Positions 1,694 through 27,721 of a stretch of 64,000 nt of DNA are shown here, in pieces. The stretch lies in NCBI RefSeq assembly GCF_053078305.1, contig NZ_CP166879.1, one strand, 5' to 3'. The position numbers and the translations under genes are program-made. Numbering within the stretch: position 1 is the stretch's first letter; every line of letters starts with the position of its first letter. The notes under the pieces were generated by a model. It saw nothing but the letters and a program-made list of their open reading frames with translations, made no database searches and was not told where the DNA came from.

Positions 1694-1715
1694 TGGTGCC
1701 GGACTCGGAATCGAA
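1694..1715 (-). other. 3'-terminal ~22 nt of a tRNA-Phe gene (att-site direct repeat; genomic island boundary)
   Basis: Plus strand TGGTGCCGGACTCGGAATCGAA is the reverse complement of the acceptor/T-arm 3' end of tRNA-Phe (one C short of the canonical sequence as I recall it); similarity stops abruptly after GAATCGAA, so the tRNA body is absent here. Confidence 0.6.
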
Positions 1716-2001
1716 GATTTCATTTATCATATTGATATTGATGTGATTTATTTAGTTTGATTAAAAATGTACCCTCATTTGTACCCGCAGTCCCTTTTGA
1801 TATTGAAAGGGAATCACACTCGGGATCAGGCTGAGAGCACAGAAAGAAAGTGCTTGGCTATTATATCGTTAATTCTGTCAATCAGTTCCAGCCTTTTGAA
1901 AGTGATGTGTGCAGATCCCTTCTTAAAGTATTTAATGATGAACATCTCGTCTTCATAGCGCTCTTTACCCTGAACAGACCGGATATGCTAATCCAGACGA
2001 A

Positions 2002-2667
2002 TTATGATATTTTCCCGGTTGTCGGGAATGGGGTTGCCACTGAAGAGATGCTGCATCCTTTCCTAGTCGGCAACCCGGTCAGTCTGTGGTCCGGTGATAA
2101 GATGAATCCCCACCGGCCCCATCTCACCAGATTGTTGATAATGATTTTACTTCCAAATTTACAGGGAGAGTTGGTTTTATAATTCCAACTCAGTCCCCTG
2201 AAGACGTTAATCACTCCCTGCTCAAACACCTCATCCTTATTCTGGTGCAGTTGTTCAAATGTGCTCATAATGTTCGCTTCACTGATTTCCGGAAAATTAT
2301 TGTACTCCAGTGACCGGTACCATGTATCACGGGTCTGCGCATCCATTAATGACAGCATCCCGGAGCGTTGCATCAGGTCACGCCAGATTTCACGGTCAAG
2401 GTTTCGGGTGATGGCTTTCATTGCCGTTTCAGTTTTCTCCATGAGCCAGCAGCCGCAGCGAAAATCCTGTTTCATCGCCCAGTCCCGGGCGCTTTTACCA
2501 CCAATGCTTTTTGTCAGTACTGAGATTTCAGTCAGTTGCCGGATAAGCGTTTCGGTTTGTTGCAGTGCTGCATTCCGTACCGTCACAACGTGTCGGATAC
2601 TGGTGGAGCAGATAACGTCCGTATGCCCGGTGACCACTTCCGGACGGGAGATTGTGATGTCTGACAT
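2002..2667 (-). CDS. DUF4942-like protein, island-edge gene; C-terminus possibly altered
   Basis: 221-aa ORF; family assignment from memory of the gene usually found beyond yeeW in CP4-44-like modules; last ~30 residues look unrelated (possible frameshift/truncation). Confidence 0.4.
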   Translation of the reverse strand: MSDITISRPEVVTGHTDVICSTSIRHVVTVRNAALQQTETLIRQLTEISVLTKSIGGKSARDWAMKQDFRCGCWLMEKTETAMKAITRNLDREIWRDLMQRSGMLSLMDAQTRDTWYRSLEYNNFPEISEANIMSTFEQLHQNKDEVFEQGVINVFRGLSWNYKTNSPCKFGSKIIINNLVRWGRWGFILSPDHRLTGLPTRKGCSISSVATPFPTTGKIS

Positions 2668-2751
2668 TATCGGTTTCCCTTTTGGTTTATAAACGAAAAC
2701 GCCAGCCGTATTCAGGCTGGCGTCAGGGTAATGAAGCGTGGTGAGTGATAT

Positions 2752-2949
2752 TCACCGGTTCTGGTGCAGAAGCTGCAGATGACGCAGGGTACGGACATCC
2801 TCTCTGGCCTGTTCGATACAGGGCAACAGTGCTGTCGAATCCGTTCTATCCTCATCGTTGTCAAAGATAATTCCCGATTCGCAGTCGATATTGTCCTGTA
2901 GCCACGCAATCAGAATATCCAGTGCGGTTTCCGTGGTTAATGATTTCAT
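2752..2949 (-). CDS. YeeW-like small protein
   Basis: 65-aa product from internal Met (MKSLTTETALDILIAWLQDN...); position downstream of the cbtA region as in CP4-44. Confidence 0.45.
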   Translation of the reverse strand: MKSLTTETALDILIAWLQDNIDCESGIIFDNDEDRTDSTALLPCIEQAREDVRTLRHLQLLHQNR

Positions 2950-2960
2950 GTTGTTCCTGG

Positions 2961-3449
2961 TTACCAGTCGAAAGTGGGCAGGTCCGGCAGACATTCAGCG
3001 CTGACATCCAGATGAATGAGACTGACGCCATAACGTTGGATGAGTGTGACAACCAGACGACGGAACGTTTTTGACAGCCCCAGGCGTTTAAGCCGCAGAA
3101 CCGGATATGACCACGCATCGGTACGTAACAGATATCCGCTACCTGTGAAATGAATCCATTCTGATTCACCGAAGTCACTGGTCTGGTGTGACAGCGAGTA
3201 CAACCAGGCGTTATCCTTTTCCGTGATATGTGCGGTACTGCAGCGTATGCCGGCAAGGGTTGCAAACGGTGGTAGTGTGCAGGTTGACTGTTGGTCGGAT
3301 TCCTCCACCACGCGGAGTGAATAACCGTTTTCAGCGACATTGTTAATCAGTTCAGCGAGATTAACACCATCAATGTCAACGACAATGCGCCCCATGTTCA
3401 GCGCCCGCACGTTAATGCTGTCGGCTTCCAGCGTCAGGGAAAGTTTCAT
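2961..3449 (-). CDS. Conserved hypothetical protein downstream of cbtA
   Basis: 162-aa ORF whose ATG overlaps the cbtA stop in an ATGA arrangement (3446-3449), suggesting translational coupling; preferred over the overlapping alternative-frame ORF 2861..3340. Confidence 0.5.
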   Translation of the reverse strand: MKLSLTLEADSINVRALNMGRIVVDIDGVNLAELINNVAENGYSLRVVEESDQQSTCTLPPFATLAGIRCSTAHITEKDNAWLYSLSHQTSDFGESEWIHFTGSGYLLRTDAWSYPVLRLKRLGLSKTFRRLVVTLIQRYGVSLIHLDVSAECLPDLPTFDW

Positions 3450-3823
3450 CGTTTCGCCTCCGGATGCTTACCCCGGGTAATGTTATTTACCGTTCTGTAA
3501 TTGTCGCGGGTCATCAGGCCGGTCGCCCGGCGAGCCCGGAGGATATCAATACTGTTTATTAACTGAGAGCGGGGACTAGTGCTGAACCGGGGCTGGTCGG
3601 TACGCACCAGCGCGTATTTTTCAACGAGAAAGTTCACCGCGTCACACAGTGAAATGCCTGCCTCAATATGCTGCTCAATCACACGTTCATCGGAGAACGG
3701 TGTGTCATTTAGCGTGAGGCCGTAGTGCTGGTCCAGCAGTCGGGTGAGCAGTGTCTGCCAGATGGTTACTGGAGATGGGCAGCGCGATGCCTCCCGTACG
3801 TGTGTGTCGGGTAATGTGTTCAT
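3446..3823 (-). CDS. cbtA: CbtA-family toxin (YeeV/YkfI/YpjF-like, cytoskeleton-targeting)
   Basis: 125-aa product closely matching remembered YeeV sequence (…WQTLLTRLLDQHYGLTLNDTPFSDERVIEQHIEAGISLCDAVNFLVEKYALVRTDQ…). Confidence 0.85.
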   Translation of the reverse strand: MNTLPDTHVREASRCPSPVTIWQTLLTRLLDQHYGLTLNDTPFSDERVIEQHIEAGISLCDAVNFLVEKYALVRTDQPRFSTSPRSQLINSIDILRARRATGLMTRDNYRTVNNITRGKHPEAKR

Positions 3824-3912
3824 ACTGAAGATTTTCCTGATATGCAGAGATGAAAAATGGGAAAGTGGCGTGGTGAAAACACCAGGCCGGAGCAGAAGGT
3901 TATTCTGATGAT

Positions 3913-4281
3913 TTACTTTTTCGTTTCGGGCGTCGGATAAACAGCCATATAAACGTAACCACAGGAGCCGAGGGTGTCGGCTTCGCAGGTCAGTCCTCTG
4001 GCATACAGCGTGACGGTATGCTGATGGCGGGGATTCAGTTCACCGCTGGTGAGCATGAGTTCCAGTTGTTTCATCAGCAGCGGAAAGGCCTGGTCCAGAT
4101 GGTACGCATCCGCGTCGCTGAACCGGCCTCTGATACCGGCGCGGTCGGCAAGGTAATACAACCGGTTACCCTCCTGCACCAGACGGGCGCCAAAACAGGG
4201 TGTTATAGTGCAGGGCAGCCCCCACCAGGGGCGGTTGTTATAGTCGTCGGGATAATTTGTCTCATGGTGCGTGTCTGACAC
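3913..4281 (-). CDS. cbeA: CbeA-family antitoxin (YeeU/YafW/YfjZ-like)
   Basis: 122-aa product matching remembered YeeU (…RPWWGLPCTITPCFGARLVQEGNRLYYLADRAGI…TLGSCGYVYMAVYPTPETKK); immediately upstream of toxin gene. Confidence 0.85.
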   Translation of the reverse strand: MSDTHHETNYPDDYNNRPWWGLPCTITPCFGARLVQEGNRLYYLADRAGIRGRFSDADAYHLDQAFPLLMKQLELMLTSGELNPRHQHTVTLYARGLTCEADTLGSCGYVYMAVYPTPETKK

Positions 4282-4443
4282 GATAAAGTCCTCACAGAAA
4301 ATCGGTTAAGAAGGGGTTAACGATGACAGGTCAGCCGGTGTGGAGACCGGCTTCGGTGAAGATGTATTCATTGATGAGAAGGGCCTCATCCACAGCGGCG
4401 TCTGAGGTCATCTGGTCGTACTCGTTTTCCGGGTGACGGAACA

Positions 4444-4665
4444 TTAGTTCAGAGTGACGCTCATCAGCCGGACATACGGGCCAAAACTGTCCTTACGGCG
4501 TTCAGCAAACACGGCCAGCACACCGGGAATATCCTGCACTTCACGACCGGTATACGCCTCAGCACTGCCGTGCCAGCGGTACTTACCGGTGCAGAACGGA
4601 AATAGACGGGATGCAGGATGCTGTTGGTGAATACGCATGGCTTCACCACGGGTGATAATTTTCAT
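4444..4665 (-). CDS. yeeT: YeeT-like DUF987 protein
   Basis: 73-aa product MKIITRGEAMRIHQQHP…RLMSVTLN, near-identical to remembered YeeT; conserved position upstream of cbeA. Confidence 0.8.
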   Translation of the reverse strand: MKIITRGEAMRIHQQHPASRLFPFCTGKYRWHGSAEAYTGREVQDIPGVLAVFAERRKDSFGPYVRLMSVTLN

Positions 4666-4733
4666 AATGGGATACCTCTGAAGACAGAAGATAAAAGTGA
4701 AAACAGGTGTGATGTGATTGTGGCGGTGACGGG

Positions 4734-5225
4734 TTAAAGCAGACCATGTTCGGCAAAGGAGAAAACCTGGCTGCCACCGACTATCAGATGGTCCGGCACC
4801 CGGATATCCACCAGGCCCAGTGCCTGTACCAGACGTTCGGTGATAAGGCGGTCTGCCTTACTGGGGGTGACTTCACCGGACGGGTGATTGTGCGCCAGCA
4901 CCACGGCAGCGGCATTGTGGTACAGGGCGCGTTTAATCACCTCCCGGGGATGGACTTCTGTGCGGTTGATGGTGCCTGTGAAGAGGGTTTCACCGGCAAT
5001 CAACTGATTCTGGTTGTTCAGATACAGCACCCGGAATTCTTCACGCTCCAGTCCAGCCATGTTCAGAATCAGCCATTCCCGTGCCGCTCGGGTGGAGGTG
5101 AAGGCCACGCCGGGTTCATGAAGATGGCGGTCCAGGGTTTTCAGGGCCCGCAGAATGAGACTGCGCTCGCCGGGCGTCATCTCTCCGGGCAGAAAGGAAA
5201 GCTGCTGCATTGTCCCTGCCTCCAT
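4734..5225 (-). CDS. yeeS: RadC-like JAB-domain protein (YeeS/YkfG/YfjY-like)
   Basis: JAMM/JAB motif region (…AAVVLAHNHPSGEVTPSKADRLITERL…); start may be the second Met at 5210. Confidence 0.8.
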   Translation of the reverse strand: MEAGTMQQLSFLPGEMTPGERSLILRALKTLDRHLHEPGVAFTSTRAAREWLILNMAGLEREEFRVLYLNNQNQLIAGETLFTGTINRTEVHPREVIKRALYHNAAAVVLAHNHPSGEVTPSKADRLITERLVQALGLVDIRVPDHLIVGGSQVFSFAEHGLL

Positions 5226-5699
5226 TCAGTCAATGATGCGCATAATGGCGCTGCATTCCGGATGCTGCAGGGCGTAATCCCGCAGCCGGTAATAATGGAC
5301 CGTCATGGCATAACACTCTGTACGACAGGCATGATGACTGTACGTCATCAGACAGGCAGCAATGCCGGCAGCTTCCGGACTCATTTCAGCGCGGTTACCG
5401 TTCATGGCATTGAACAGTACCCATGTTTCGTCATCATCGTCATCCGGTTCAGGGGCCATAAATGCCCCGCCGTTGTTCAGGGTGTACAGATTCCAGATGC
5501 CCCCGCAGTAGTCTTCGCACAAACGGTCCATCCAGCCGAAGACACGGGGCTCCAGGGTCACCCACTGTGGAATGAGGCTAAAATGCTGCGGCCAGAAGCT
5601 GATGCGCTGTTCATCAGGGACTATGGTGGCAACCAGTTGTTGCAGGCCAGTCTCCGGTGCACAGGCTGAAGAGGTGGTGTTCTGAGACAATGTTTTCAT
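5226..5699 (-). CDS. Antirestriction protein, ArdB/KlcA family (YfjX/YafX-like)
   Basis: ~157-aa product from internal Met (MKTLSQN…); acidic stretch PEPDDDDDETW; stop abuts radC-like start; conserved position in CP4-type modules. Confidence 0.75.
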   Translation of the reverse strand: MKTLSQNTTSSACAPETGLQQLVATIVPDEQRISFWPQHFSLIPQWVTLEPRVFGWMDRLCEDYCGGIWNLYTLNNGGAFMAPEPDDDDDETWVLFNAMNGNRAEMSPEAAGIAACLMTYSHHACRTECYAMTVHYYRLRDYALQHPECSAIMRIID

Positions 5700-5792
5700 G
5701 TGTGAAATCCTTGTAATGTGAATAAATGAGAGGAAATAAAGGCCGGGGGCTGACAACATCACGTTCATCACTGACCGTGAGACCCGGCAATA

Positions 5793-6038
5793 TCAGGGAT
5801 GAATGATATTCGGCTGAAATTCCGGACAGCCGTACGCGTAACCGTTCCGGTCACAGACGGATGGCCAGATGCCATTGCCTGTACTCAGTCTGCACAGACT
5901 GAGTTCTCCGGGACGGTAAAGCAGACGGGTACACCAGGCGCACAGGTCATCATCAGAAATGGAACGACATCCCGGCAGCGCCTCCGGGGCGTCGGGTGAT
6001 ACGGGTGCCTGAATCACGCCTTCAGGGATATGTTTCAT
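5793..6038 (-). CDS. Small DUF905-type protein (YkfF-like)
   Basis: 81-aa product from Met at 6038; its ATG overlaps the upstream stop as TGATG (6036-6040); position between DUF932 and antirestriction genes as in CP4-6/CP4-57. Confidence 0.6.
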   Translation of the reverse strand: MKHIPEGVIQAPVSPDAPEALPGCRSISDDDLCAWCTRLLYRPGELSLCRLSTGNGIWPSVCDRNGYAYGCPEFQPNIIHP

Positions 6039-6859
6039 CAGCGCATGCTCTCCAGCAGCGTTTCTGCCATCACCCACAATGCGCGGTTGAGCTTAATATC
6101 GGTGTCGATGCTGTGAATGGCACGGGTGTGGATACGTTTTCCTTTTGCACTGCGACCGGAAATCCCGCCTTTCAGCATATTCTCCTGGATGGTCTGATAA
6201 GCACTCCACAGGTCCTTACCGTAATCCTCCCGGCGTCGCGGTGTCAGAATGTCGGCGGTAGTGATGGGCTGATGTTCGTCACCATAACGGTAAGTCAGTG
6301 CCGCCTGTGCCAGCGCCTGGCGTGCCGGTGGCGGCAGGACCAGCGACTGCATGGCATCACGCTTCTCCTCTATCCGGTCAAACACGCCCACCACCTCGTA
6401 AGCCCCTTCAATGACTCTGTCCACCACATTTCCCCGGTGCGGAACACGCACTTCCCCCAGAGACTGACCACAGACGCATCCGTTCTGGCAGACGAACCTG
6501 AAGTAACCCGGCAGCATCTGGTAGCTGGAGGTACCGTCATGGGAGTTGAGCAGAATAATTTCAGGGACATGTTCTCCGTTTATCTCTCCGGCCCGCCGCA
6601 GACGCAGCATGTGTTTTGTGTATCCCCGGCGGCCCGGGTCGCGCACACGGGTCTGGCAGGCGAAGAATGGCTGAAAGCCTTCCCGCTGCAGGCTTTCCAG
6701 CACAGTGATGGTGGGGATGTACGTATAGTTCTGGCTTCGGGACGTGTGTTTCTCTTCCCCGAAAATCCCCGGCACATGGTGCATCAGCTCTTCATATGTC
6801 AGCGGACGGTCACGGCGTATCTGGTTTGCAGCATAACCAAAACGACTTGCTAATCGCAT
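6038..6859 (-). CDS. DUF932 protein (YafZ/YfjQ-like)
   Basis: 273-aa ORF, the size characteristic of YafZ/YfjQ; uninterrupted; strong coding appearance. Confidence 0.75.
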   Translation of the reverse strand: MRLASRFGYAANQIRRDRPLTYEELMHHVPGIFGEEKHTSRSQNYTYIPTITVLESLQREGFQPFFACQTRVRDPGRRGYTKHMLRLRRAGEINGEHVPEIILLNSHDGTSSYQMLPGYFRFVCQNGCVCGQSLGEVRVPHRGNVVDRVIEGAYEVVGVFDRIEEKRDAMQSLVLPPPARQALAQAALTYRYGDEHQPITTADILTPRRREDYGKDLWSAYQTIQENMLKGGISGRSAKGKRIHTRAIHSIDTDIKLNRALWVMAETLLESMR

Positions 6860-6904
6860 AATTTGCTCCTTATCGGTGGTTAAGATTTACTGGTGTAATA
6901 AATG

Positions 6905-6936
6905 AAAAAAGCCGCGTCTCCCGGAGAAGACGCGGC
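6905..6936 (-). terminator. Rho-independent terminator
   Basis: Stem gccgcgtct/agacgcggc with 8-nt loop; on the minus strand followed by UUUUUU (plus-strand aaaaaa at 6905-6910). Confidence 0.5.
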
Positions 6937-7269
6937 CTGATGGACGAAATTAATGAGGTTTATTGTCTGAGAAGCCCTCCACTGGCGAGCCACGCATTAA
7001 GCTGTTTTCCGGCATCAGCTTCAGAGTTCCGGCAGCGTCAGCGTCGCTGACCTTCCGCGTTGCGGATAACCCGACGGAAATGCATTCCCGGGTCATCCTG
7101 GATAAACACATTGCGGTAAGCGGTTATGACAGCAACCGCCTGCCCGTATGAGAAAGATCCTTCAGCCAGGACATACTCTGTGTGTAACCCGGCATATCTG
7201 GTTTCTCCTGATAAATAGCCTCTGCCATACGTTGTGGCAGAGGCTGAAGCATGAAACTGACTTCAGGGA

Positions 7270-7725
7270 TCAGTTAACATTTTTTCCGGAAACGGTAATC
7301 AGCAGTGGATGGTAGTCCTGGGGATTGAAAACCGATAACGGCAGACTGACACGATGGCCGTTACTTTCTTCAGTTGCTTTAATGATTTCGGTTGTGGCGA
7401 CATTTTCCACGCACTCCGTTTCCAGAAATGCGTCTGTGGTTCGCGTGGCATTACTGTCACCAAAAGCTTCCGTTTCCATTTTTCTGGTCACCAGCGTCTG
7501 ACCATATTTGTCTTTGAGTTGCAGAGTGATGGTGAGGGGGCCAAATCCTTCATCGTTTCCGCCATTATCCAGCCGGAACTGGTAAGCACAAATATTTCCC
7601 GGGAGCCATATTGTATCTGTATTGCGTATACTGATGTAACGTTGATCCTGTGCCCGGAGTGGGGCAGACCACGTTAACCCCAGAATGAAGGCGGTAATCA
7701 TGCAGGTTTTGAACAGGTGAATCAT
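7270..7725 (-). CDS. Secreted/periplasmic protein of unknown function
   Basis: 151-aa ORF with N-terminal signal peptide (MITAFILGLTWSAPLRAQ); no recognisable catalytic motif. Confidence 0.55.
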   Translation of the reverse strand: MIHLFKTCMITAFILGLTWSAPLRAQDQRYISIRNTDTIWLPGNICAYQFRLDNGGNDEGFGPLTITLQLKDKYGQTLVTRKMETEAFGDSNATRTTDAFLETECVENVATTEIIKATEESNGHRVSLPLSVFNPQDYHPLLITVSGKNVN

Positions 7726-7800
7726 GGTATTTACCTCTCTGAGTCATGACGATGACACTGACAAATCAGGTGATAAAGCGTAAAAGGCGCAGAATAGCCG

Positions 7801-10323
7801 TTATGCCGGTAACTCCGGGGGTAATGCTTCTTCCAGTCGGTTAACCATATTGCCGAGATGGGATGCATCATATTCCATGACGGGGCGTTGCCTGATGATA
7901 CTGACCACCAGTGGTTTGATTAACATATTGGTCGCGGCCCGTTGTTGTATACCGGCGGCGAAAATGATCTCCAGAGCATTCTGATCGATAACACGGGCCA
8001 GATTCGCGTTCAGATTTTCAATCTCATGTCCGGTCAGCAGGAAACTGCCGGCAAGCCATGTCACCTGCTCCTGAATCATTGCCAGAATTTTGACGCGATC
8101 TTCTTCAACCAGCGCTCCGGCAATTTTTCCTGATACAGCGGAGGCAATCATTCCCCCCAGAACACCGCCAACCACACGCCCTGTCAGTGCACCAAATGGT
8201 CCCAGTGGACTGAACAATATCCCGCCCGCCACTGACCCGACAGCACCACCTGCCACACCGGAAGATGCCACGGCAAGATTCCTGATGAACTGCGCACCGG
8301 AGATCCGTCCCCGCAACATTTTGATCATGTCAGGGCCGGTTGTGACAGCTACCAGTGCCAGAGATGTCACCAGCGTACCCTTCATCACTTTGTTCAGGGC
8401 ACTGATATTTCCTGCACCGGTCCCCTTCTGAAGAGCCAGTCGGACAGTCGGGCTGGCAGTCGAAAAATCAATGTGCTTCAGCATACCCTGAACAACAGTG
8501 AGCCGGTGAAGTTGCTGGGTTGTGACGTAGACAGCCAGTGTGCGGGTGAAGGTTTTTCCTGCCTGGACAGCAGCTGTCTGCAGGGCAGCATCGCGATCGC
8601 CGGTGCTGAGCCAGAAGATCGATGCCGTCAGGGCAAAACTGATCCCTCCGGCCGCCAGACTGACAACCGACCCCTCGGCAATATCATAAGTGACCGATTC
8701 GATGGTCCCGAACCGGGTGATATTACGGGCCTGAGTATAAGTCAGATGTCCCCGACGAATCAGCCGGGACGCTTCTGCGGGATCGGTTACACCGGGTACT
8801 TTACCTTCGCGGATCTTATTCCTCATGGTTTCAACAGCGCCGGCATACTGATCACGGGGGACTTCCAGTTGCATGGGGCCATTATTTCCCATGTAACGAT
8901 ACTGTCCGTTTTGTCCGTCGAATGCCGCACCGACGCTACGGGCTGCAGTTGAACAATATTTCGTCTGGATTTCTGTTCCGCTGACCAGTCTGTCTGCTCC
9001 ATTTCTGGCATTATTATCACCGAGGATCCGTGCGTTTTTCAGACGGACTCTGTCGACAATATGGTTTCCCCGTTCAGCGGCAAACCCATGTCCCTGCCCT
9101 CCGGAAGCAAACATTTTCTCATTTGTACTCCAGGTTTCCGGCAGTTTCATGAGAATCAGACCATTCGCCGTTGCATCGGAAATAAAGCTGTTGTAAGGGC
9201 GTTCATAAATTTCCTGACACAGTGTTTCTGTTTCGCGACAAAGAGAGGAGCAGTACCATTCCGGATCCGGCTTATGATTTTCCGGGGCATGATGTACTTC
9301 TGTCAGCCCGCAGGAGGCACAGATACGAAGCTCATCCACGTGATGGAATGATACAAAACGGCGACCTTCTGAAAAGGGATACCAGTCACCGCCGTCCAGG
9401 CAACGATCGAGAAAATCGTCATTCGCTTCCGGTGATAAATTCAGGCGGTTCCGGAAGAGCGTTTTCAGTTCATCAGGTGTGAATGACAGGTTCTCTTTCA
9501 ACTGTTCGTTAAACCCTGCCATGTTTCTTTCATACCAGGCATTGTTCAGTAACCAGTTTCCGTCTGCCAGTTCAAATTCCCTCAGCTCTCCCCGGGAAAT
9601 CCGTTGAGAAATGAGCGTCAGCCAGATGCGCTCCGTCAGTGAGTCAGGAAGGCTGTAATCGTTTTGCAAACTGGTCAGCCACGATTTACTGTTGAGCACC
9701 GGTTGTTCTTCCAGTGTCTGGCTGATGGCACAGGTCAGTTTTTTCAGCGCCTGGATCTGGCTGGCCGCCCATAGCAGCGTCACTAATGCAGCCAGCCAGT
9801 ACAACAACCCGCCCCACCACATCAGTGACGGTGAAATATCGTACTGTAACGCGATCAATGGTGCGCATGCAGAACACGCCATAAGGAAAAAGGCAGTATA
9901 AAAACAGCAGTAATACCCGTTAATTTCCTTGCTGATATCTTCTGGTGTGATCCCGTTCTGCTGAATGTTTTTGATCTGCAGGGGAACAGCCAGCAGACCA
10001 CCGGCGAGAGCAGTGGTCAGAATAAATTTCACAGAGTCAAAGGTGTGAGCCTCCAGCGCGATATGTTTACCATCAAGTCCCCACATGAAGCTGATGATCA
10101 TTCCGGCAATCGTCAGAAATACGCCTGCCAGCCAGCGAATATGGAACAACCGGGTTATGCGTTCGGTGATATAGCCAGCCAGTAAGGCCGGGCCGAACAG
10201 ACACAGCAATATGAGCCCTGCCAGCGCAGAAGCCGTGCTGATTAATGCTCTGAACAAAAGGCGAAGAATGGCAAATCCTGCGATCAGCAGGATCAGCGCG
10301 CCGACTATCTGTAACATAGTCAC
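7801..10323 (-). CDS. Large inner-membrane protein, YeeR-like
   Basis: 840-aa ORF immediately downstream of flu (position of yeeR in CP4-44); multiple N-terminal TM helices, Cys/His cluster (CASCGLTEVHH…CSSLC), Gly-rich hydrophobic C-terminal segment. Confidence 0.65.
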   Translation of the reverse strand: MTMLQIVGALILLIAGFAILRLLFRALISTASALAGLILLCLFGPALLAGYITERITRLFHIRWLAGVFLTIAGMIISFMWGLDGKHIALEAHTFDSVKFILTTALAGGLLAVPLQIKNIQQNGITPEDISKEINGYYCCFYTAFFLMACSACAPLIALQYDISPSLMWWGGLLYWLAALVTLLWAASQIQALKKLTCAISQTLEEQPVLNSKSWLTSLQNDYSLPDSLTERIWLTLISQRISRGELREFELADGNWLLNNAWYERNMAGFNEQLKENLSFTPDELKTLFRNRLNLSPEANDDFLDRCLDGGDWYPFSEGRRFVSFHHVDELRICASCGLTEVHHAPENHKPDPEWYCSSLCRETETLCQEIYERPYNSFISDATANGLILMKLPETWSTNEKMFASGGQGHGFAAERGNHIVDRVRLKNARILGDNNARNGADRLVSGTEIQTKYCSTAARSVGAAFDGQNGQYRYMGNNGPMQLEVPRDQYAGAVETMRNKIREGKVPGVTDPAEASRLIRRGHLTYTQARNITRFGTIESVTYDIAEGSVVSLAAGGISFALTASIFWLSTGDRDAALQTAAVQAGKTFTRTLAVYVTTQQLHRLTVVQGMLKHIDFSTASPTVRLALQKGTGAGNISALNKVMKGTLVTSLALVAVTTGPDMIKMLRGRISGAQFIRNLAVASSGVAGGAVGSVAGGILFSPLGPFGALTGRVVGGVLGGMIASAVSGKIAGALVEEDRVKILAMIQEQVTWLAGSFLLTGHEIENLNANLARVIDQNALEIIFAAGIQQRAATNMLIKPLVVSIIRQRPVMEYDASHLGNMVNRLEEALPPELPA

Positions 10324-10393
10324 TCCGTGATGAATATCATGTTATTGTTAATGCCAGCGAATGTGGCGTTGAATATCCGTTGCGCCGGTCCGG

Positions 10394-10418
10394 GTCCCGG
10401 TCATGATGACCGGGACCA
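10394..10418. repeat. Near-perfect 25-bp palindrome between flu and the YeeR-like gene
   Basis: ggtcccggtcatgatgaccgggacc reads the same on both strands except the central base. Confidence 0.8.
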
Positions 10419-10437
10419 CAGAGAGGCGATGGTTCTG

Positions 10438-13400
10438 TCAGAAGGTCACATTCAGCGTGGCCTGACCGTTATAGCCTTCAGCGCTGCTGCCGCTGACGCT
10501 GTGGACATAACCTGCCTGAACGCCCAGGGTGATGTTTTCCCGGACACGGGCTTCCAGTCCGGCCTGCAGGTCCAGTGACGTACCATTCTGTGACGGTGAG
10601 AACGTCATGTTACTGCCGGCTGCGGCTGTACCCATGCTCATGTCCCCCCGGGAGCTGAAGGTGCGGATAACAGAAGGCTGTACCCACCAGTTCACCGGCA
10701 GTTCACGCACACTGTGTTTGGCACTGCCGCGCAGGGTGTCACGGGATGAGGTGCCTTTACCAAAGTTCATATCGTTGTGGCTGCCCAGACGGAAGCCGGC
10801 ACGCACATGTTGTGCACTGCCATGCCCGAACTTCACATAACCGGCGTTGTCCTGACCGTCATCCAGGGAGAGTCCCTGCCAGGTGTACTGCAGTTGCGGC
10901 TCCAGCATCAGATTGTCAGTGATACTGAAGGGCAGACCGGTTTCCAGTGAACCCAGCCAGCCCCGGCCCCGGACGCGGAAGTCGTTATTGTCCGATGAGG
11001 CTTTCATGCTGTGGCGGGTTCCCTGGGCCACAATGTCAGCCCACAGGCCGGAGGCGTTGTGTATCAGATTCAGGTATCCGCCCAGGCTGCCGGCATCATC
11101 CCGGACCGTGCCGGCACGGGAGCCGTCATCATCCTTAACATCAACGGAAGAATGGCCTGCAGCACCATACACCCCTGTCGTCAGAGACATACCGGCAACC
11201 TCTGTTCTCATCAGGTCACCCTCCAGACGGACGAAGCCATAGCTGCCGCTGCTTTCCGGCGTGGCCCCACGGACAATACCGCCGTTGTTATCGTGACCGA
11301 GATGGCCGCCCTGAATGCTGAGACGGACGCTGTTATTTTCACCGTTTACACCGGTCTGATGGCTGCGGGAGCCTGCCAGAATCCGGTCATAGTCCATTGC
11401 CTGTGTCAGCATGGAGGCATACAGGGGGACTTCTGCACGATAAGCATTTTCACTGCGCAGATACCAGCTCTCATCACTGTCCCGGTTGAGGGAGTAGTTA
11501 AAGGCCCCGGCCTGCAGCCTGTTCCCCTGGACAAAGGCCCCTTCCTCCGTGGTGGCACCGTTAATGGCTTCCACCACCTGAATACCCTTACCGCTGGTCG
11601 CCAGCCCCGACGCACTGTTGCCGGCGTTCACCATGTTCAGGATGGTTTTTCCGGTTGCCCTGCCGCCGTCAATGACCAGTCTGTCAGCATTGTTCTGTGC
11701 CATATCCGGGCGTACACGCAGGCTGATGGTGCCATTCTGCCCGTTCAGGTTTTTCACTTTCAGGGTTGCCGGTACGAACTTCCCTGTGCGGGTGGAGGTG
11801 AAATGAATCTGTCCGGCATGGCTGAGGTCATCCACCACCGACTGCACCGTGGCGTTATCAGGGATATTCCAGGTGGCACCGGAGGCGAGAGTGACATTCG
11901 TGGGGTCAATGGCACCGTTCAGCACAGTGCTGCCGGTCAGCTTCAGGGCTGTACCGCGCTGAGCAATGACATCCGTGGTGACGGTACTGTCGTTCAGCGT
12001 CAGCGTGCCTTCATTCAGGTTGACGGCTTTCTGGGTGAGTGTGGTGTTGCTGACAGTGAGTGTGCCACTTCCTGATTTTTCCACGCTGCCGTTACCGGTG
12101 AGAGAGCCTCCCTGCAGGAGTGCATCGCCTTCACGGATGGTCAGGGTATCGTTGTTCACCGTCTTCCCGGAAAGGGTAAGTATGGCGCCGTTATTCAGCG
12201 TGGTGGTGCCCGCCAGTGTGCCGCCCCTGGCGGTGAACAGTCCGCCATTTACCGTGGTATCCGTGGCCGTATCACCGGCGTTCAGCGTGAATGAACTGCC
12301 TTTTTCCAGCATCAGGGCATCCGCCTGACCGCCTCCGATACTGAATGCCTTTCCGTCGCTCCGTGTACCACTGACAGCGGCACCGGAATCGGCCAGCAGT
12401 ACACCGCCATTTCCCATGGATACGGTGGTGGCGGTACCACCGTTGCGGACATCCAGCGTTCCGCCATCATCCACACGGGTATTAGTGGCTGTGTGTCCGC
12501 TCAGCACATCCAGACGTCCGCCATTTTCCAGTACGACATTATCAGCTTTACCCTCCACAACAGAGAATGCTCCCAGGCGGTTTGTACCGGTAACGGTTGC
12601 AGCCGTACTGGTAACCAGTGCACCGCCCGTGTTCTGGGTGACATCAGACGCTTTACCGCCGGCATTCACCTGCAGCTTTCCTTTCTGGTTGATGGTGGTA
12701 TGCGCGGCAGTTCCTCCTTCCTTAATCACCTGCCAGCCATCACGGTTTATCAGCGTCTCTGTTGCCGTGCCACCGTTGTGTACATACTGGTTACCCCCCT
12801 CCAGCCGGGTGTTATGTGCCTCTCCGTGTACCGTCTGGTCACCACCGGCGTAAATGAGGGTGTCCCGTGCCATCCCCGAAGACCAGATAACCTGCCGGCC
12901 ATTTTTGTTGATGGTGGTGGATTCAGCCGTCCCTCCGACCATCTGACCGCTGGACACATTTTCAGACTCCGGACCACCTTCTGCACCGGTGTTGACGATG
13001 GTTCCGGTTGCCAGTCCGCCATGTTTTATGGTCTGGTAACCATCCAGGTTAATAATTGTACCGGCAGCTTTCCCTCCCCCGTGTACCCACTGCTCACCTC
13101 TGTTATCCAGCGTGGTGTTCACCGCCAGTCCGTTAAGGCTCTGCCCTCCGCCATCACGAATAACCGTATCACTGGCAGTTCCTCCTGCCTGCACAATCTG
13201 ACGACCATTTGCGGTGACAGTGGTGTTTCTGCCTGTGCCACCCGCGTTTATCCATTGCCCGCCGGTGTTTTCGTCACTGTCCGGCCCCAGCTCAAGCCCG
13301 GTACTGACAGTCACGCCATCAGCTGTTCCGGATACAAACTGGTTGTCATGGTTTACCAGTGTTCCGCCATTCACTGTTTCACCCGGGTGCACAACGATGT

Positions 13401-13566
13401 CAGCAGCCAGCACCGGGAGTGACGTGACCGCGGCAAGAGACAGTGCAACCGCCACACCGCCACGTTTACCCCGTGCGCGGGCCAGTTCGGAGGCAACCAC
13501 GAAAGCGCCCGTAATGTGATTCCATACCAGCCTGTAGCAGGTATTCAGATGTCGTTTCATCAGCAT
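10438..13566 (-). CDS. flu: Antigen 43 (Ag43) self-associating autotransporter adhesin
   Basis: 1042-aa product matching remembered Ag43 along its length: extended signal peptide MKRHLNTCYRLVWNH…, passenger repeats, C-terminal beta-barrel ending …GYNGQATLNVTF. True start probably Met at 13560. Confidence 0.95.
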   Translation of the reverse strand: MLMKRHLNTCYRLVWNHITGAFVVASELARARGKRGGVAVALSLAAVTSLPVLAADIVVHPGETVNGGTLVNHDNQFVSGTADGVTVSTGLELGPDSDENTGGQWINAGGTGRNTTVTANGRQIVQAGGTASDTVIRDGGGQSLNGLAVNTTLDNRGEQWVHGGGKAAGTIINLDGYQTIKHGGLATGTIVNTGAEGGPESENVSSGQMVGGTAESTTINKNGRQVIWSSGMARDTLIYAGGDQTVHGEAHNTRLEGGNQYVHNGGTATETLINRDGWQVIKEGGTAAHTTINQKGKLQVNAGGKASDVTQNTGGALVTSTAATVTGTNRLGAFSVVEGKADNVVLENGGRLDVLSGHTATNTRVDDGGTLDVRNGGTATTVSMGNGGVLLADSGAAVSGTRSDGKAFSIGGGQADALMLEKGSSFTLNAGDTATDTTVNGGLFTARGGTLAGTTTLNNGAILTLSGKTVNNDTLTIREGDALLQGGSLTGNGSVEKSGSGTLTVSNTTLTQKAVNLNEGTLTLNDSTVTTDVIAQRGTALKLTGSTVLNGAIDPTNVTLASGATWNIPDNATVQSVVDDLSHAGQIHFTSTRTGKFVPATLKVKNLNGQNGTISLRVRPDMAQNNADRLVIDGGRATGKTILNMVNAGNSASGLATSGKGIQVVEAINGATTEEGAFVQGNRLQAGAFNYSLNRDSDESWYLRSENAYRAEVPLYASMLTQAMDYDRILAGSRSHQTGVNGENNSVRLSIQGGHLGHDNNGGIVRGATPESSGSYGFVRLEGDLMRTEVAGMSLTTGVYGAAGHSSVDVKDDDGSRAGTVRDDAGSLGGYLNLIHNASGLWADIVAQGTRHSMKASSDNNDFRVRGRGWLGSLETGLPFSITDNLMLEPQLQYTWQGLSLDDGQDNAGYVKFGHGSAQHVRAGFRLGSHNDMNFGKGTSSRDTLRGSAKHSVRELPVNWWVQPSVIRTFSSRGDMSMGTAAAGSNMTFSPSQNGTSLDLQAGLEARVRENITLGVQAGYVHSVSGSSAEGYNGQATLNVTF

Positions 13567-13751
13567 TTCCTTAATCAGAGTGAGAGTGAATAAAAAAGCC
13601 GGTATCCACAGATGTGGATACCGGCAGGTAAAGGGTTACAGTGCCAGAGGTCCGGCTGACGGAAGTTTCTGACGTGTGGCTCTGTTGTTCCCTGAATGTC
13701 TTTCTGTACGTATCTGTGCATGTTACTGACAAAGGTTATTATTAGCTTATC

Positions 13752-13787
13752 GATCGATATAAACGATCGATAAAATAGGTATCGATC
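13752..13787 (-). promoter_or_regulatory. agn43 phase-variation switch: three GATC Dam sites in the OxyR operator region
   Basis: GATC at 13752, 13765 and 13784 within tatcGATCgatataaacGATCgataaaataggtatcGATCg, ~190-220 bp upstream of the flu start codon. Confidence 0.8.
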
Positions 13788-13892
13788 GTTTTATTCTATT
13801 GTTTGGCTATTGCACGGACAAGAGAGACAGTAACGAAAACAGCGCTTTTGTGAGCAGACTCAGAGTCAGGGAGGGCATCAGTCACGACAGGT

Positions 13893-14765
13893 TCAGAAGA
13901 AAATCCAGTTCCATACCGCACGGGCAACAGAGACCACCGTGTTACGAACAGCGCGCAGGGCCGTACGGACAACAGAGGCAACACAGACGCTCTCCGCTGT
14001 GTCAAATATCCGGTCCACCGCACCGGTAAACTGTTCACGGGCCTGAGACCGGACAGATTCCGTGCGCAGCTCGTCCTGCAGTCGGGTCATCAGGGGACTG
14101 GCGGCATGGTCGGGAAGCGCTGTCATGAGCGCACTGACCAGCGTATCCAGTTCCCAGCCGGTGCGGGCCGATACGGCCACAACCGGATGTACGGGCCGGA
14201 ACAGACGGAATACCGCCTCCGTTTTTTCGCGAATATTCTGTGCCTGTGCAGGAGAAGGCTGAATACCGGCCATATCCCATTCATGGCAGGGCTCCGTTTT
14301 GTCGGCCTGCGTCACCACAAACAGCACCTGCTGATGTCCCCGGTGCAGGATGTGTCGCCAGAAATACTCATCCACAGACAGGGCCCGGTCATCGGCTTTA
14401 ATCAGCCACAGCACCAGGTCAAGTTCAGGCAGAATGTCACGGTACAGGGCCTCATACTCTGCATCCCTGTCCCGGCTCTCGCCCACCCCGGGCAGGTCAG
14501 TGATAACCATGCTGTGACCGTGGCCACTCAGACGGAAGCGCCGTACTTCCCGGGTGCCGGCGTGAACATCACTGACCGGGGTGACCTCCCCCTGAAACAG
14601 TGCATTACAGAGTGAGGATTTACCGGCCCCGCTTTTACCCATAATGCCAATCACGGGTTCGTGACGGGTGAGTTTGCGCAGATGTTCCAGGATGTGACGG
14701 GAAAGTGAGTAAGGCAGGGAGGAGAGCGGTTTTTCAATTGCCTCAATGGCATCAGACGGATTCAT
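13893..14765 (-). CDS. yeeP: YeeP/YkfA/YfjP-family GTPase
   Basis: P-loop GIMGKSGAGKSSL plus G-motifs (DLPGVG, TQADK); ~290 aa from Met at 14765 (ORF extends to 14804); upstream of flu as in CP4-44. Confidence 0.8.
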   Translation of the reverse strand: MNPSDAIEAIEKPLSSLPYSLSRHILEHLRKLTRHEPVIGIMGKSGAGKSSLCNALFQGEVTPVSDVHAGTREVRRFRLSGHGHSMVITDLPGVGESRDRDAEYEALYRDILPELDLVLWLIKADDRALSVDEYFWRHILHRGHQQVLFVVTQADKTEPCHEWDMAGIQPSPAQAQNIREKTEAVFRLFRPVHPVVAVSARTGWELDTLVSALMTALPDHAASPLMTRLQDELRTESVRSQAREQFTGAVDRIFDTAESVCVASVVRTALRAVRNTVVSVARAVWNWIFF

Positions 14766-26800: not shown

Positions 26801-27721
26801 ATGGACATTGCAGTTATTGGTTCCAATATGGTGGATCTCATTACTTACACTAATCAGATGCCTAAAGAAGGAGAAACTCTGGAAGCACCTGCCTTCAAAA
26901 TCGGATGTGGTGGGAAAGGTGCTAATCAAGCGGTGGCGGCGGCTAAATTGAATTCAAAAGTCCTGATGCTGACTAAAGTAGGTGATGATATTTTTGCGGA
27001 TAATACTATTCGTAATCTTGAATCTTGGGGAATTAATACCACTTATGTTGAGAAAGTCCCCTGTACCAGCAGTGGTGTTGCGCCGATCTTTGTTAATGCT
27101 AACTCGAGCAATAGTATTTTAATAATTAAGGGGGCGAATAAATTTCTTTCCCCGGAAGATATCGATCGAGCTGCAGAAGATCTGAAAAAATGCAAATTGA
27201 TCGTTTTACAACTGGAAGTTCAACTGGAAACAGTTTACCACGCGATTGAGTTTGGTAAGAAAAATGGTATTGAAGTGTTATTAAATCCGGCTCCGGCATT
27301 GCGTGAGTTAGATATGTCTTATGCCTGCAAATGTGATTTCTTTATCCCGAATGAAACAGAACTGGAAATATTAACCGGTATGTCGGTTGATACTTATGAT
27401 CATATTCGTTTGGCCGCACGTTCGTTAGTTGATAAAGGGCTGAACAATATTATTGTTACCATGAGCGAAAAAGGCGCATTATGGATGACCCGTGATCAGG
27501 AAGTCCATGTTCCTGCATTCAAAGTAAATGCTGTTGATACTAGTGGCGCTGGTGACGCATTTATTGGTTGCTTTTCCCATTATTATGTTCAAAGCGGTGA
27601 TGTTGAAGCCGCTTTGAAAAAAGCCGCTCTCTTTGCCGCTTTCAGCGTCACAGGGAAAGGTACGCAATCATCTTATCCGAGTATTGAACAATTTAATGAA
27701 TTTTTAACCTTAAACGAATAA
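26801..27721 (+). CDS. deoK: Ribokinase-family sugar kinase (deoxyribokinase DeoK-like)
   Basis: PfkB/ribokinase signatures (GGKGANQAVAAA near N-terminus; DTSGAGDAF near C-terminus); AAGAGG RBS 5 nt before ATG 26801. Confidence 0.8.
   Translation: MDIAVIGSNMVDLITYTNQMPKEGETLEAPAFKIGCGGKGANQAVAAAKLNSKVLMLTKVGDDIFADNTIRNLESWGINTTYVEKVPCTSSGVAPIFVNANSSNSILIIKGANKFLSPEDIDRAAEDLKKCKLIVLQLEVQLETVYHAIEFGKKNGIEVLLNPAPALRELDMSYACKCDFFIPNETELEILTGMSVDTYDHIRLAARSLVDKGLNNIIVTMSEKGALWMTRDQEVHVPAFKVNAVDTSGAGDAFIGCFSHYYVQSGDVEAALKKAALFAAFSVTGKGTQSSYPSIEQFNEFLTLNE

Follow-up and report, generated by a model that had tools for sequence, protein, structure and literature searches.

Antigen 43 of E. coli is encoded by flu (agn43), and its expression is subject to a phase-variation switch in which the methyltransferase Dam and the regulator OxyR compete for the same sites. 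The stretch of DNA analysed here (64,000 nucleotides, hereafter the window) carries a flu copy with an intergenic region of 326 bp in front of it (13567-13892), which reaches from the stop codon of a yeeP-like GTPase gene (13893) to the ATG of the longest flu open reading frame (13566), both genes lying on the minus strand. The locus therefore raises the question whether this interval contains a complete Dam/OxyR switch and, if so, which transcripts and genes would be governed by it. According to our comparison of sequences, the region is very probably the flu/agn43 control region with its Dam/OxyR switch, situated in a pheV-associated island of E. coli.

Cis elements of the flu control region

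The flu gene itself is intact (10438-13560, minus strand). It encodes 1040 amino acids with matches to the Pfam families ESPR, AIDA, AC_1 and Autotransporter. Over its entire length, the protein shares 89% identity with Flu of K-12, with the divergence located mostly in the N-terminal passenger region, and it is 96.7% identical to Ag43 of JJ1886 (ST131). By direct reading of the sequence, the translation start region (13558-13572, minus strand) consists of the Shine-Dalgarno motif AAGGA (13572-13568) and the ATG equivalent to that of K-12 (13560-13558). In related alleles, PGAP, the automated annotation of NCBI, starts agn43 at the equivalent of ATG 13560 as well. An extra in-frame ATG is found two codons upstream of the K-12 start (13564-13566) and originates from an A>T change which is present in 7 of 10 alleles; its use is unlikely, because it follows the Shine-Dalgarno motif by only 1 nt. 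These ten alleles, on which all allele comparisons below are based, were chosen across the identity range and are 86-98% identical to the window. The upstream neighbour of the control region, the yeeP-like GTPase gene (13893-14765, minus strand; Pfam MMR_HSR1), is intact, too. In related records it is annotated as a "GTPase family protein" of 873 nt, and its product has 290 amino acids according to this annotation or 303 amino acids when the longest ORF is taken.

A promoter scan of the minus strand returned one sigma-70-like promoter, TTGTCC-17 nt-TAGAAT (13821-13793), which is located directly upstream of the GATC sites. Its −35 hexamer (TTGTCC, 13816-13821) and its −10 hexamer (TAGAAT, 13793-13798, separated by the 17-nt spacer) are both identical to those of K-12 and invariant in the ten alleles. 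Three GATC sites in the flu 5′ region, 13 and 19 bp apart, had been pointed out in the initial annotation, and they were found upstream of the minus-strand flu gene with exactly this start-to-start spacing, beginning at 13752, 13765 and 13784. In the direction of transcription they are GATC-I (13784-13787), GATC-II (13765-13768) and GATC-III (13752-13755), and all three are invariant in the ten alleles, as is the block AGAATAAAACGATC.

The start of the flu transcript can be placed with the help of two related strains. In K-12, the isrC annotation begins at the G of GATC-I. In the ST131 strain EC958, the 5′ end of the agn43-yeeR-irmA mRNA was mapped by 5′ RACE to a position 228 bp upstream of the ATG (Moriel et al., PMC4807369), and exactly this distance separates the G of GATC-I from the ATG in JJ1886, another ST131 strain; the corresponding distance in the window copy is 227 nt. 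Since the K-12 annotation start and the RACE distance both lead to the G of GATC-I, we infer that +1 of the flu transcript is the G at 13787 on the minus strand. The G of the upstream GATC is reportedly the start point of agn43 transcription, and the footprint of OxyR(C199S) is said to extend from −16 to +42. The equivalent of this footprint in the window, which we take to be 13803-13746, spans the −10 hexamer and all three GATC sites.

A search with the OxyR consensus ATAGnTnnnAnCTAT-N7-ATAGnTnnnAnCTAT gave 14 of 20 matching positions at 13789-13753, in the same register and with the same score as in K-12. The predicted tetramer site is composed of the half-sites ACGATCGATACCTAT (6/10) and ATCGTTTATATCGAT (8/10) with 7 nt between them; as a sequence match only, it contains the GATC sites and overlaps the start point. 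A third OxyR-like half-site (6/10; 13731-13745) follows 22 bp further downstream and belongs to a second register with a score of 14/20 (13767-13731), which is present in K-12, too. Its sequence, AATAATAAC, is largely invariant in the ten alleles. Three unrelated sites of the window also reach 14/20 in the consensus scan and, for this reason, the consensus match is not independent evidence; it is the identity to the experimentally shown site which counts. In this respect, the proposed match to the Dam/OxyR switch of agn43 is borne out by the alignment to the K-12 control region: the columns of the three sites coincide with those of GATC-I, GATC-II and GATC-III of K-12, and all of them lie within the best OxyR-consensus match (13789-13753), none outside.

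Overall, the intergenic region is 96% identical to the yeeP-isrC-flu region of K-12 MG1655 (NC_000913). The K-12 locus, situated in the CP4-44 prophage, shares with the window the hexamers, three GATC sites at 19 and 13 bp, the register and score of the OxyR site, as well as the leader hairpin and the terminator described below. It differs by five substitutions in a core of 101 bp (13835-13735), two of which are found in the OxyR site and three in the promoter spacer. Further differences are a 4-nt insertion before the Shine-Dalgarno motif and the extra in-frame ATG in the window copy. Moreover, yeeP is a pseudogene in K-12 in contrast to the intact yeeP-like gene of the window, and the locus resides in CP4-44 there, whereas the island is located at pheV here.

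These substitutions raise the possibility that the switch is present in sequence but locked, i.e., that changes in the OxyR site or in the spacer render flu constitutively ON or OFF. Besides the five differences from K-12 within the core, it speaks for this possibility that, according to the literature, a certain affinity of binding is a prerequisite of phase variation, which is also dependent on how many GATC sites are present (PMC2909390). However, the two changes in the OxyR site (+5 A>G and +9 T>C) fall on positions which are unspecified in the consensus and leave the score unchanged. Furthermore, the window carries the majority base at both positions (+5, 7/10; +9, 6/10) among the natural alleles, and its 101-bp core recurs at 100% identity in ten or more complete genomes of E. 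coli; among 5426 E. coli genomes, 1843 have a match to the core. The allele of ST131 carries changes adjoining GATC-I, GATC-II and GATC-III and, thus, is more divergent than the window core, which is closer to K-12 and to the consensus; nevertheless, the ST131 allele is still repressed by OxyR, with a 121-fold effect in EC958 (PMC4807369; JJ1886 serves as sequence stand-in). Because the variant bases are common in nature and OxyR represses even an allele of greater divergence, we regard a locked switch as improbable. The description of the switch as apparently intact, given in the initial annotation, therefore stands: the promoter hexamers equal those of K-12, the three GATC sites are kept and the flu ORF is uninterrupted.

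The leader RNA and the genes downstream of the switch

A covariance model search (cmscan) identified the flu leader as the small RNA IsrC/IS102 (Rfam RF00124) at 13585-13789 on the minus strand, with 252.9 bits compared to a gathering score of 46 and with the complete model covered (1-206 of 206). The same family covers the annotated isrC of K-12 with 252.6 bits, which agrees with the earlier statement that IsrC maps to the yeeP-flu interval in K-12, where isrC is indeed annotated. As RF00124 matches 13789-13585 and covers K-12 isrC, the 5′ end of the RNA falls at the switch, and the RNA runs collinear with flu. IsrC is, therefore, more than a neighbour of the switch: with its start at GATC-I and its end at the leader terminator, it represents the flu leader after premature termination. 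Consequently, IsrC would be phase-variable, too.

Two structures are predicted within the leader. The first is a 5′ hairpin formed by the palindrome of GATC-II and GATC-III (11 bp; 13746-13774, minus strand), which appears in the minimum free energy fold as well as in the Rfam consensus structure. The second is an intrinsic terminator (13590-13625, minus strand), recognized by the terminator scan and by folding, which consists of a perfect GC-rich stem of 12 bp (13625-13598) and TTTTTTAT and lies 30 nt before the start codon. In K-12, the terminator stem contains one G-U pair, whereas it is perfect in the window copy. Across the ten alleles, 92% of the cells are paired in the leader hairpin and 98% in the terminator; double-sided changes were absent from both structures in these alleles, so that covariation neither supports nor contradicts them. 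Apart from these two structures, the regions of GATC-I and GATC-II form, as a consequence of the change +5 A>G, a perfect inverted repeat of 10 bp (13761-13791), which the terminator scan flagged as terminator-like on the plus strand. Due to this repeat, the 5′ leader could fold into a I:II hairpin in place of the II:III hairpin.

A transcript started at GATC-I would thus open with a leader of approximately 198 nt, the annotated sRNA IsrC/IS102, and would stop at the intrinsic terminator. Read-through by antitermination would then yield the flu mRNA and would most likely proceed into yeeR and irmA. Control of flu by antitermination of IsrC has been described (PMC5389530).

One might object that IsrC is an independent sRNA gene and that the GATC sites and OxyR chiefly control this sRNA, with flu being transcribed from another promoter. 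The separate ncRNA annotation in K-12, the existence of an Rfam family of its own and the strong terminator between IsrC and flu could be read in this way. Yet no other promoter-like site was found in the 30 nt from the terminator to the ATG, the literature describes IsrC as an antitermination-controlled flu leader (PMC5389530) and the 5′ end of the flu-yeeR-irmA mRNA determined by RACE falls at the GATC-I position (PMC4807369). We therefore consider a separate flu promoter very unlikely. In addition, the views of IsrC as a gene and as a leader are largely compatible and differ mostly in naming; in either case, both RNAs would be phase-variable.

With IsrC as the leader of flu, the next question concerns the extent of the transcription unit. 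Downstream of flu, and adjacent to it on the minus strand, follow a yeeR-like gene of 838 amino acids (7801-10317), identified as an ORF with the position and length of the gene downstream of agn43 in EH01-18-02, and irmA, encoding the interleukin receptor mimic protein A (7270-7725; Pfam PF18673, E = 2.1e-37), as second and third gene, respectively. In the complete flu-yeeR-irmA gene set (7270-13787, minus strand), a terminator scan detected no terminator-like sites between the genes. In EC958, agn43-yeeR-irmA form one operon according to RT-PCR, and in an oxyR mutant of this strain the agn43 transcript is increased 121-fold and the irmA transcript 12.9-fold (PMC4807369). The IrmA protein is likewise raised in oxyR mutants of CFT073 and 83972 (PMC4807369). 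The operon of these uropathogenic strains (CFT073, PAI-pheV and PAI-serX; ST131 strain EC958; PMC4807369) resembles that of the window in the gene order flu, yeeR, irmA on one strand and in its presence in a pheV island; for ST131, the position of the transcription start coincides with GATC-I as well. K-12, in contrast, has a disrupted yeeR and no irmA (PMC4807369), while both genes are complete in the window. As the gene set matches the OxyR-repressed operon of EC958 and no terminator separates the genes, control by the switch probably extends to the entire operon of flu, yeeR and irmA, and the cytokine-receptor mimic IrmA would then be phase-variable along with Ag43.

GATC sites beyond the switch

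How informative the GATC sites are by themselves was judged from their distribution. The 64-kb window contains 150 GATC sites compared to approximately 264 expected, i.e., the motif is under-represented. In a simulation which distributed 150 sites randomly over 64 kb, 31% of the trials contained a triple within 32 bp or less. Locally, the clustering is conspicuous: no GATC other than the switch sites occurs between 10294 and 14821, and the probability that three sites distributed randomly over 4.5 kb come to lie so close together is ~1.5e-4. A second triple is located at 27164, 27179 and 27199 (27164-27202; spacing 15 and 20) inside the ORF of a pfkB-family sugar kinase. No OxyR-like match was found at 27164-27202 in the consensus scan, and this triple is taken as a result of chance or of coding constraint. 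Another triple of this kind was encountered in an unrelated Firmicutes MAG, again within a pfkB gene (L013, 2380-2415). Because a triple arises in 31% of random placements and a second one exists in the kinase ORF, GATC clustering by itself is weak evidence, and homology decides. Accordingly, a chance cluster without regulatory meaning, to which the two last-named facts would lend some credit, can be dismissed with near certainty for the sites in front of flu, because they align column for column, in exact register, with the experimentally defined sites of K-12 and, moreover, do not vary among alleles with 86-97% protein identity, in contrast to positions in their flanks.

In contrast to its control region, the flu coding sequence is free of GATC, compared to an expectation of 9.1 ± 2.3 sites from synonymous codon shuffling (none of 2000 shuffles reached zero). 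TCGA is absent as well (expected 5.7 ± 2.0; 3 of 2000 shuffles were as low). The agn43 genes of K-12, JJ1886 and PSJ-07 show the same picture, likewise with no GATC, and the gene of EH01 contains two GATC sites, at 87-97% nucleotide identity between the alleles. This pattern might suggest that GATC, and also TCGA, have been actively purged from the agn43 coding sequence and that the purge is tied to the switch. If this was true, the purge could insulate the switch from processive Dam, SeqA tracts or MutH nicking, and the epigenetic state would be set only by the OxyR-protected triplet. However, other genes of the island are as depleted as flu, e.g., a type I secretion ABC gene with one GATC compared to 9.3 expected, or an HlyD gene with none compared to 5.7. 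GATC-free stretches of 7.2, 5.2 and 3.7 kb are found at 54020-61210, 1914-7156 and 40630-44351, respectively, and GATC-free regions of at least 1 kb have been reported for mobile elements, including GI-pheV of EC958 (PMC4659465). Given the depletion of other island genes and the published pattern in mobile elements (PMC4659465), the GATC-free flu gene is probably an instance of the known, generic GATC avoidance in such elements. A purge linked to the switch appears doubtful to us, and the GATC-free ORF was set aside as a switch-specific feature, generic avoidance being the default.

We also searched species-representative genomes with the invariant pattern of 33 bases and with a looser pattern of 20 bases. 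The 33-base pattern had no match in these genomes, and no agn43 locus was found with either pattern; presumably, the representative genome of E. coli lacks agn43. The looser pattern yielded two loci in Raoultella and one chance match in a Firmicutes kinase gene. The Raoultella loci are located in Raoultella ornithinolytica (L014, 5040-6000) and in a Raoultella MAG (L015, 9310-10273). Their block consists of AACGATCAAT, a gap of 9 nt and TTATCGATCGTTTATATCGATC, has three GATC sites at the 19/13 spacing of agn43 and contains a 22-nt identical core. A fourth GATC is present 55 bp upstream, inside an OxyR half-site of 9/10. The block overlaps a promoter-like site and is situated about 100 bp upstream of an unannotated membrane protein of 256-276 amino acids, for which no match in Pfam or NCBIfam and no credible match in PADLOC was obtained. 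Among 5426 E. coli genomes, 83 contain the same module. The single genome examined, 2022CK-00450 (L016, 7040-8001), has it in a small island between yggS and yggR, where all four GATC sites are kept and the neighbouring genes encode a serine recombinase, a helicase and an anti-phage protein. Judged from its sequence, this four-GATC module outside the window may be an undescribed phase switch of the Dam/OxyR type.

Island context and proposed operation of the switch

The window starts with gspL, followed by gspM/yghD (both recognized by Pfam). Adjoining gspM/yghD, a fragment of 22 nt (1694-1715, minus strand) marks the island boundary; we take it to be the 3′ end of tRNA-Phe (pheV), bar one missing G. 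In other E. coli genomes, a tRNA-Phe is annotated under the match to 1694-1715. The chromosomal flank shares 99% identity with E. coli and is the only part of the window by which the species is identified. The designation of flu as an island copy is thereby confirmed, the pheV island boundary being about 12 kb away. Beyond this boundary, the window consists of mosaic island DNA with DUF4942, DUF932, IrmA, YeeR, Flu, GTPase, YfjI and IS66, and it further contains a type I secretion system with a repeat adhesin as well as YadA-like adhesins. No intact tRNA is present in the 64-kb window and, hence, the island exceeds 62 kb. Among complete E. coli genomes, no match to the whole island in one piece was found; pieces of it are about 94-99% identical at best. 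The pheV island of CFT073 carries agn43a (PMC4807369), and the island of the window is of the pheV type, i.e., of the kind carrying agn43a in that strain. As a separate observation, the repeat adhesin gene (43988-48832; 1614 amino acids with Ig-like Big_13 repeats) adjoins the TolC-like, ABC and HlyD genes of type I secretion and includes at least three tandem units of 1002 bp, with segments of 300 nt being 100% identical between units. Tandem Repeats Finder reported nothing for these repeats at its maximum period of 500, and they were confirmed by a separate repeat search.

Every cis element needed for the switch is present and intact in the window. The genes for the trans-acting factors, dam and oxyR, are both absent from the 64 kb; E. 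coli carries dam and oxyR. On this basis, the switch would operate as follows. The sigma-70 promoter would start transcription at the G of GATC-I (13787), and the predicted OxyR tetramer site (13789-13753) would overlap this start and hold the three Dam targets. With the GATC sites unmethylated, reduced OxyR would bind, block RNA polymerase and keep Dam off the sites, resulting in a heritable OFF state. If, after replication, Dam methylated the sites, OxyR could not bind and the promoter would fire, resulting in a heritable ON state. This scheme follows what is known for agn43, where Dam methylation of the three GATC sites prevents OxyR binding (ON), OxyR on unmethylated sites represses transcription and blocks Dam (OFF), and the heritable states interconvert at about 1e-3 per generation (PMC3764049, PMC2909390, PMC4872104). 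For the present strain, OxyR binding, the methylation states, ON/OFF switching, read-through of the terminator and cotranscription are inferred.

The scheme can be compared with two related kinds of phase-variation switch. In gtr and opvAB of Salmonella, the GATC sites are embedded in OxyR half-sites as well, and OxyR binding excludes methylation and vice versa (PMC2909390, PMC4856963). However, these loci have four GATC sites and two alternative sites for OxyR, an activating and a repressing one, whereas agn43 has a single repressing site with three GATC sites (PMC2909390). The loci are not homologous. The pap system is comparable in that a heritable methylation pattern arises from Dam competing with a DNA-binding protein. 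Its regulator, in contrast, is Lrp/PapI instead of OxyR, and its two GATC boxes are 102 bp apart (PMC2909390); its sequence is unrelated.

The switch described here is already known and its sequence is identical to copies in other E. coli genomes, so that the mechanism as such gains nothing new. Its relevance concerns the island: the adhesin locus carries a textbook epigenetic switch and, therefore, aggregation and biofilm formation by Ag43, probably along with IrmA, should be expressed in part of the population only. This is useful for annotation and for phenotyping of the strain, since the results differ depending on whether an ON or an OFF colony is picked (PMC3764049).
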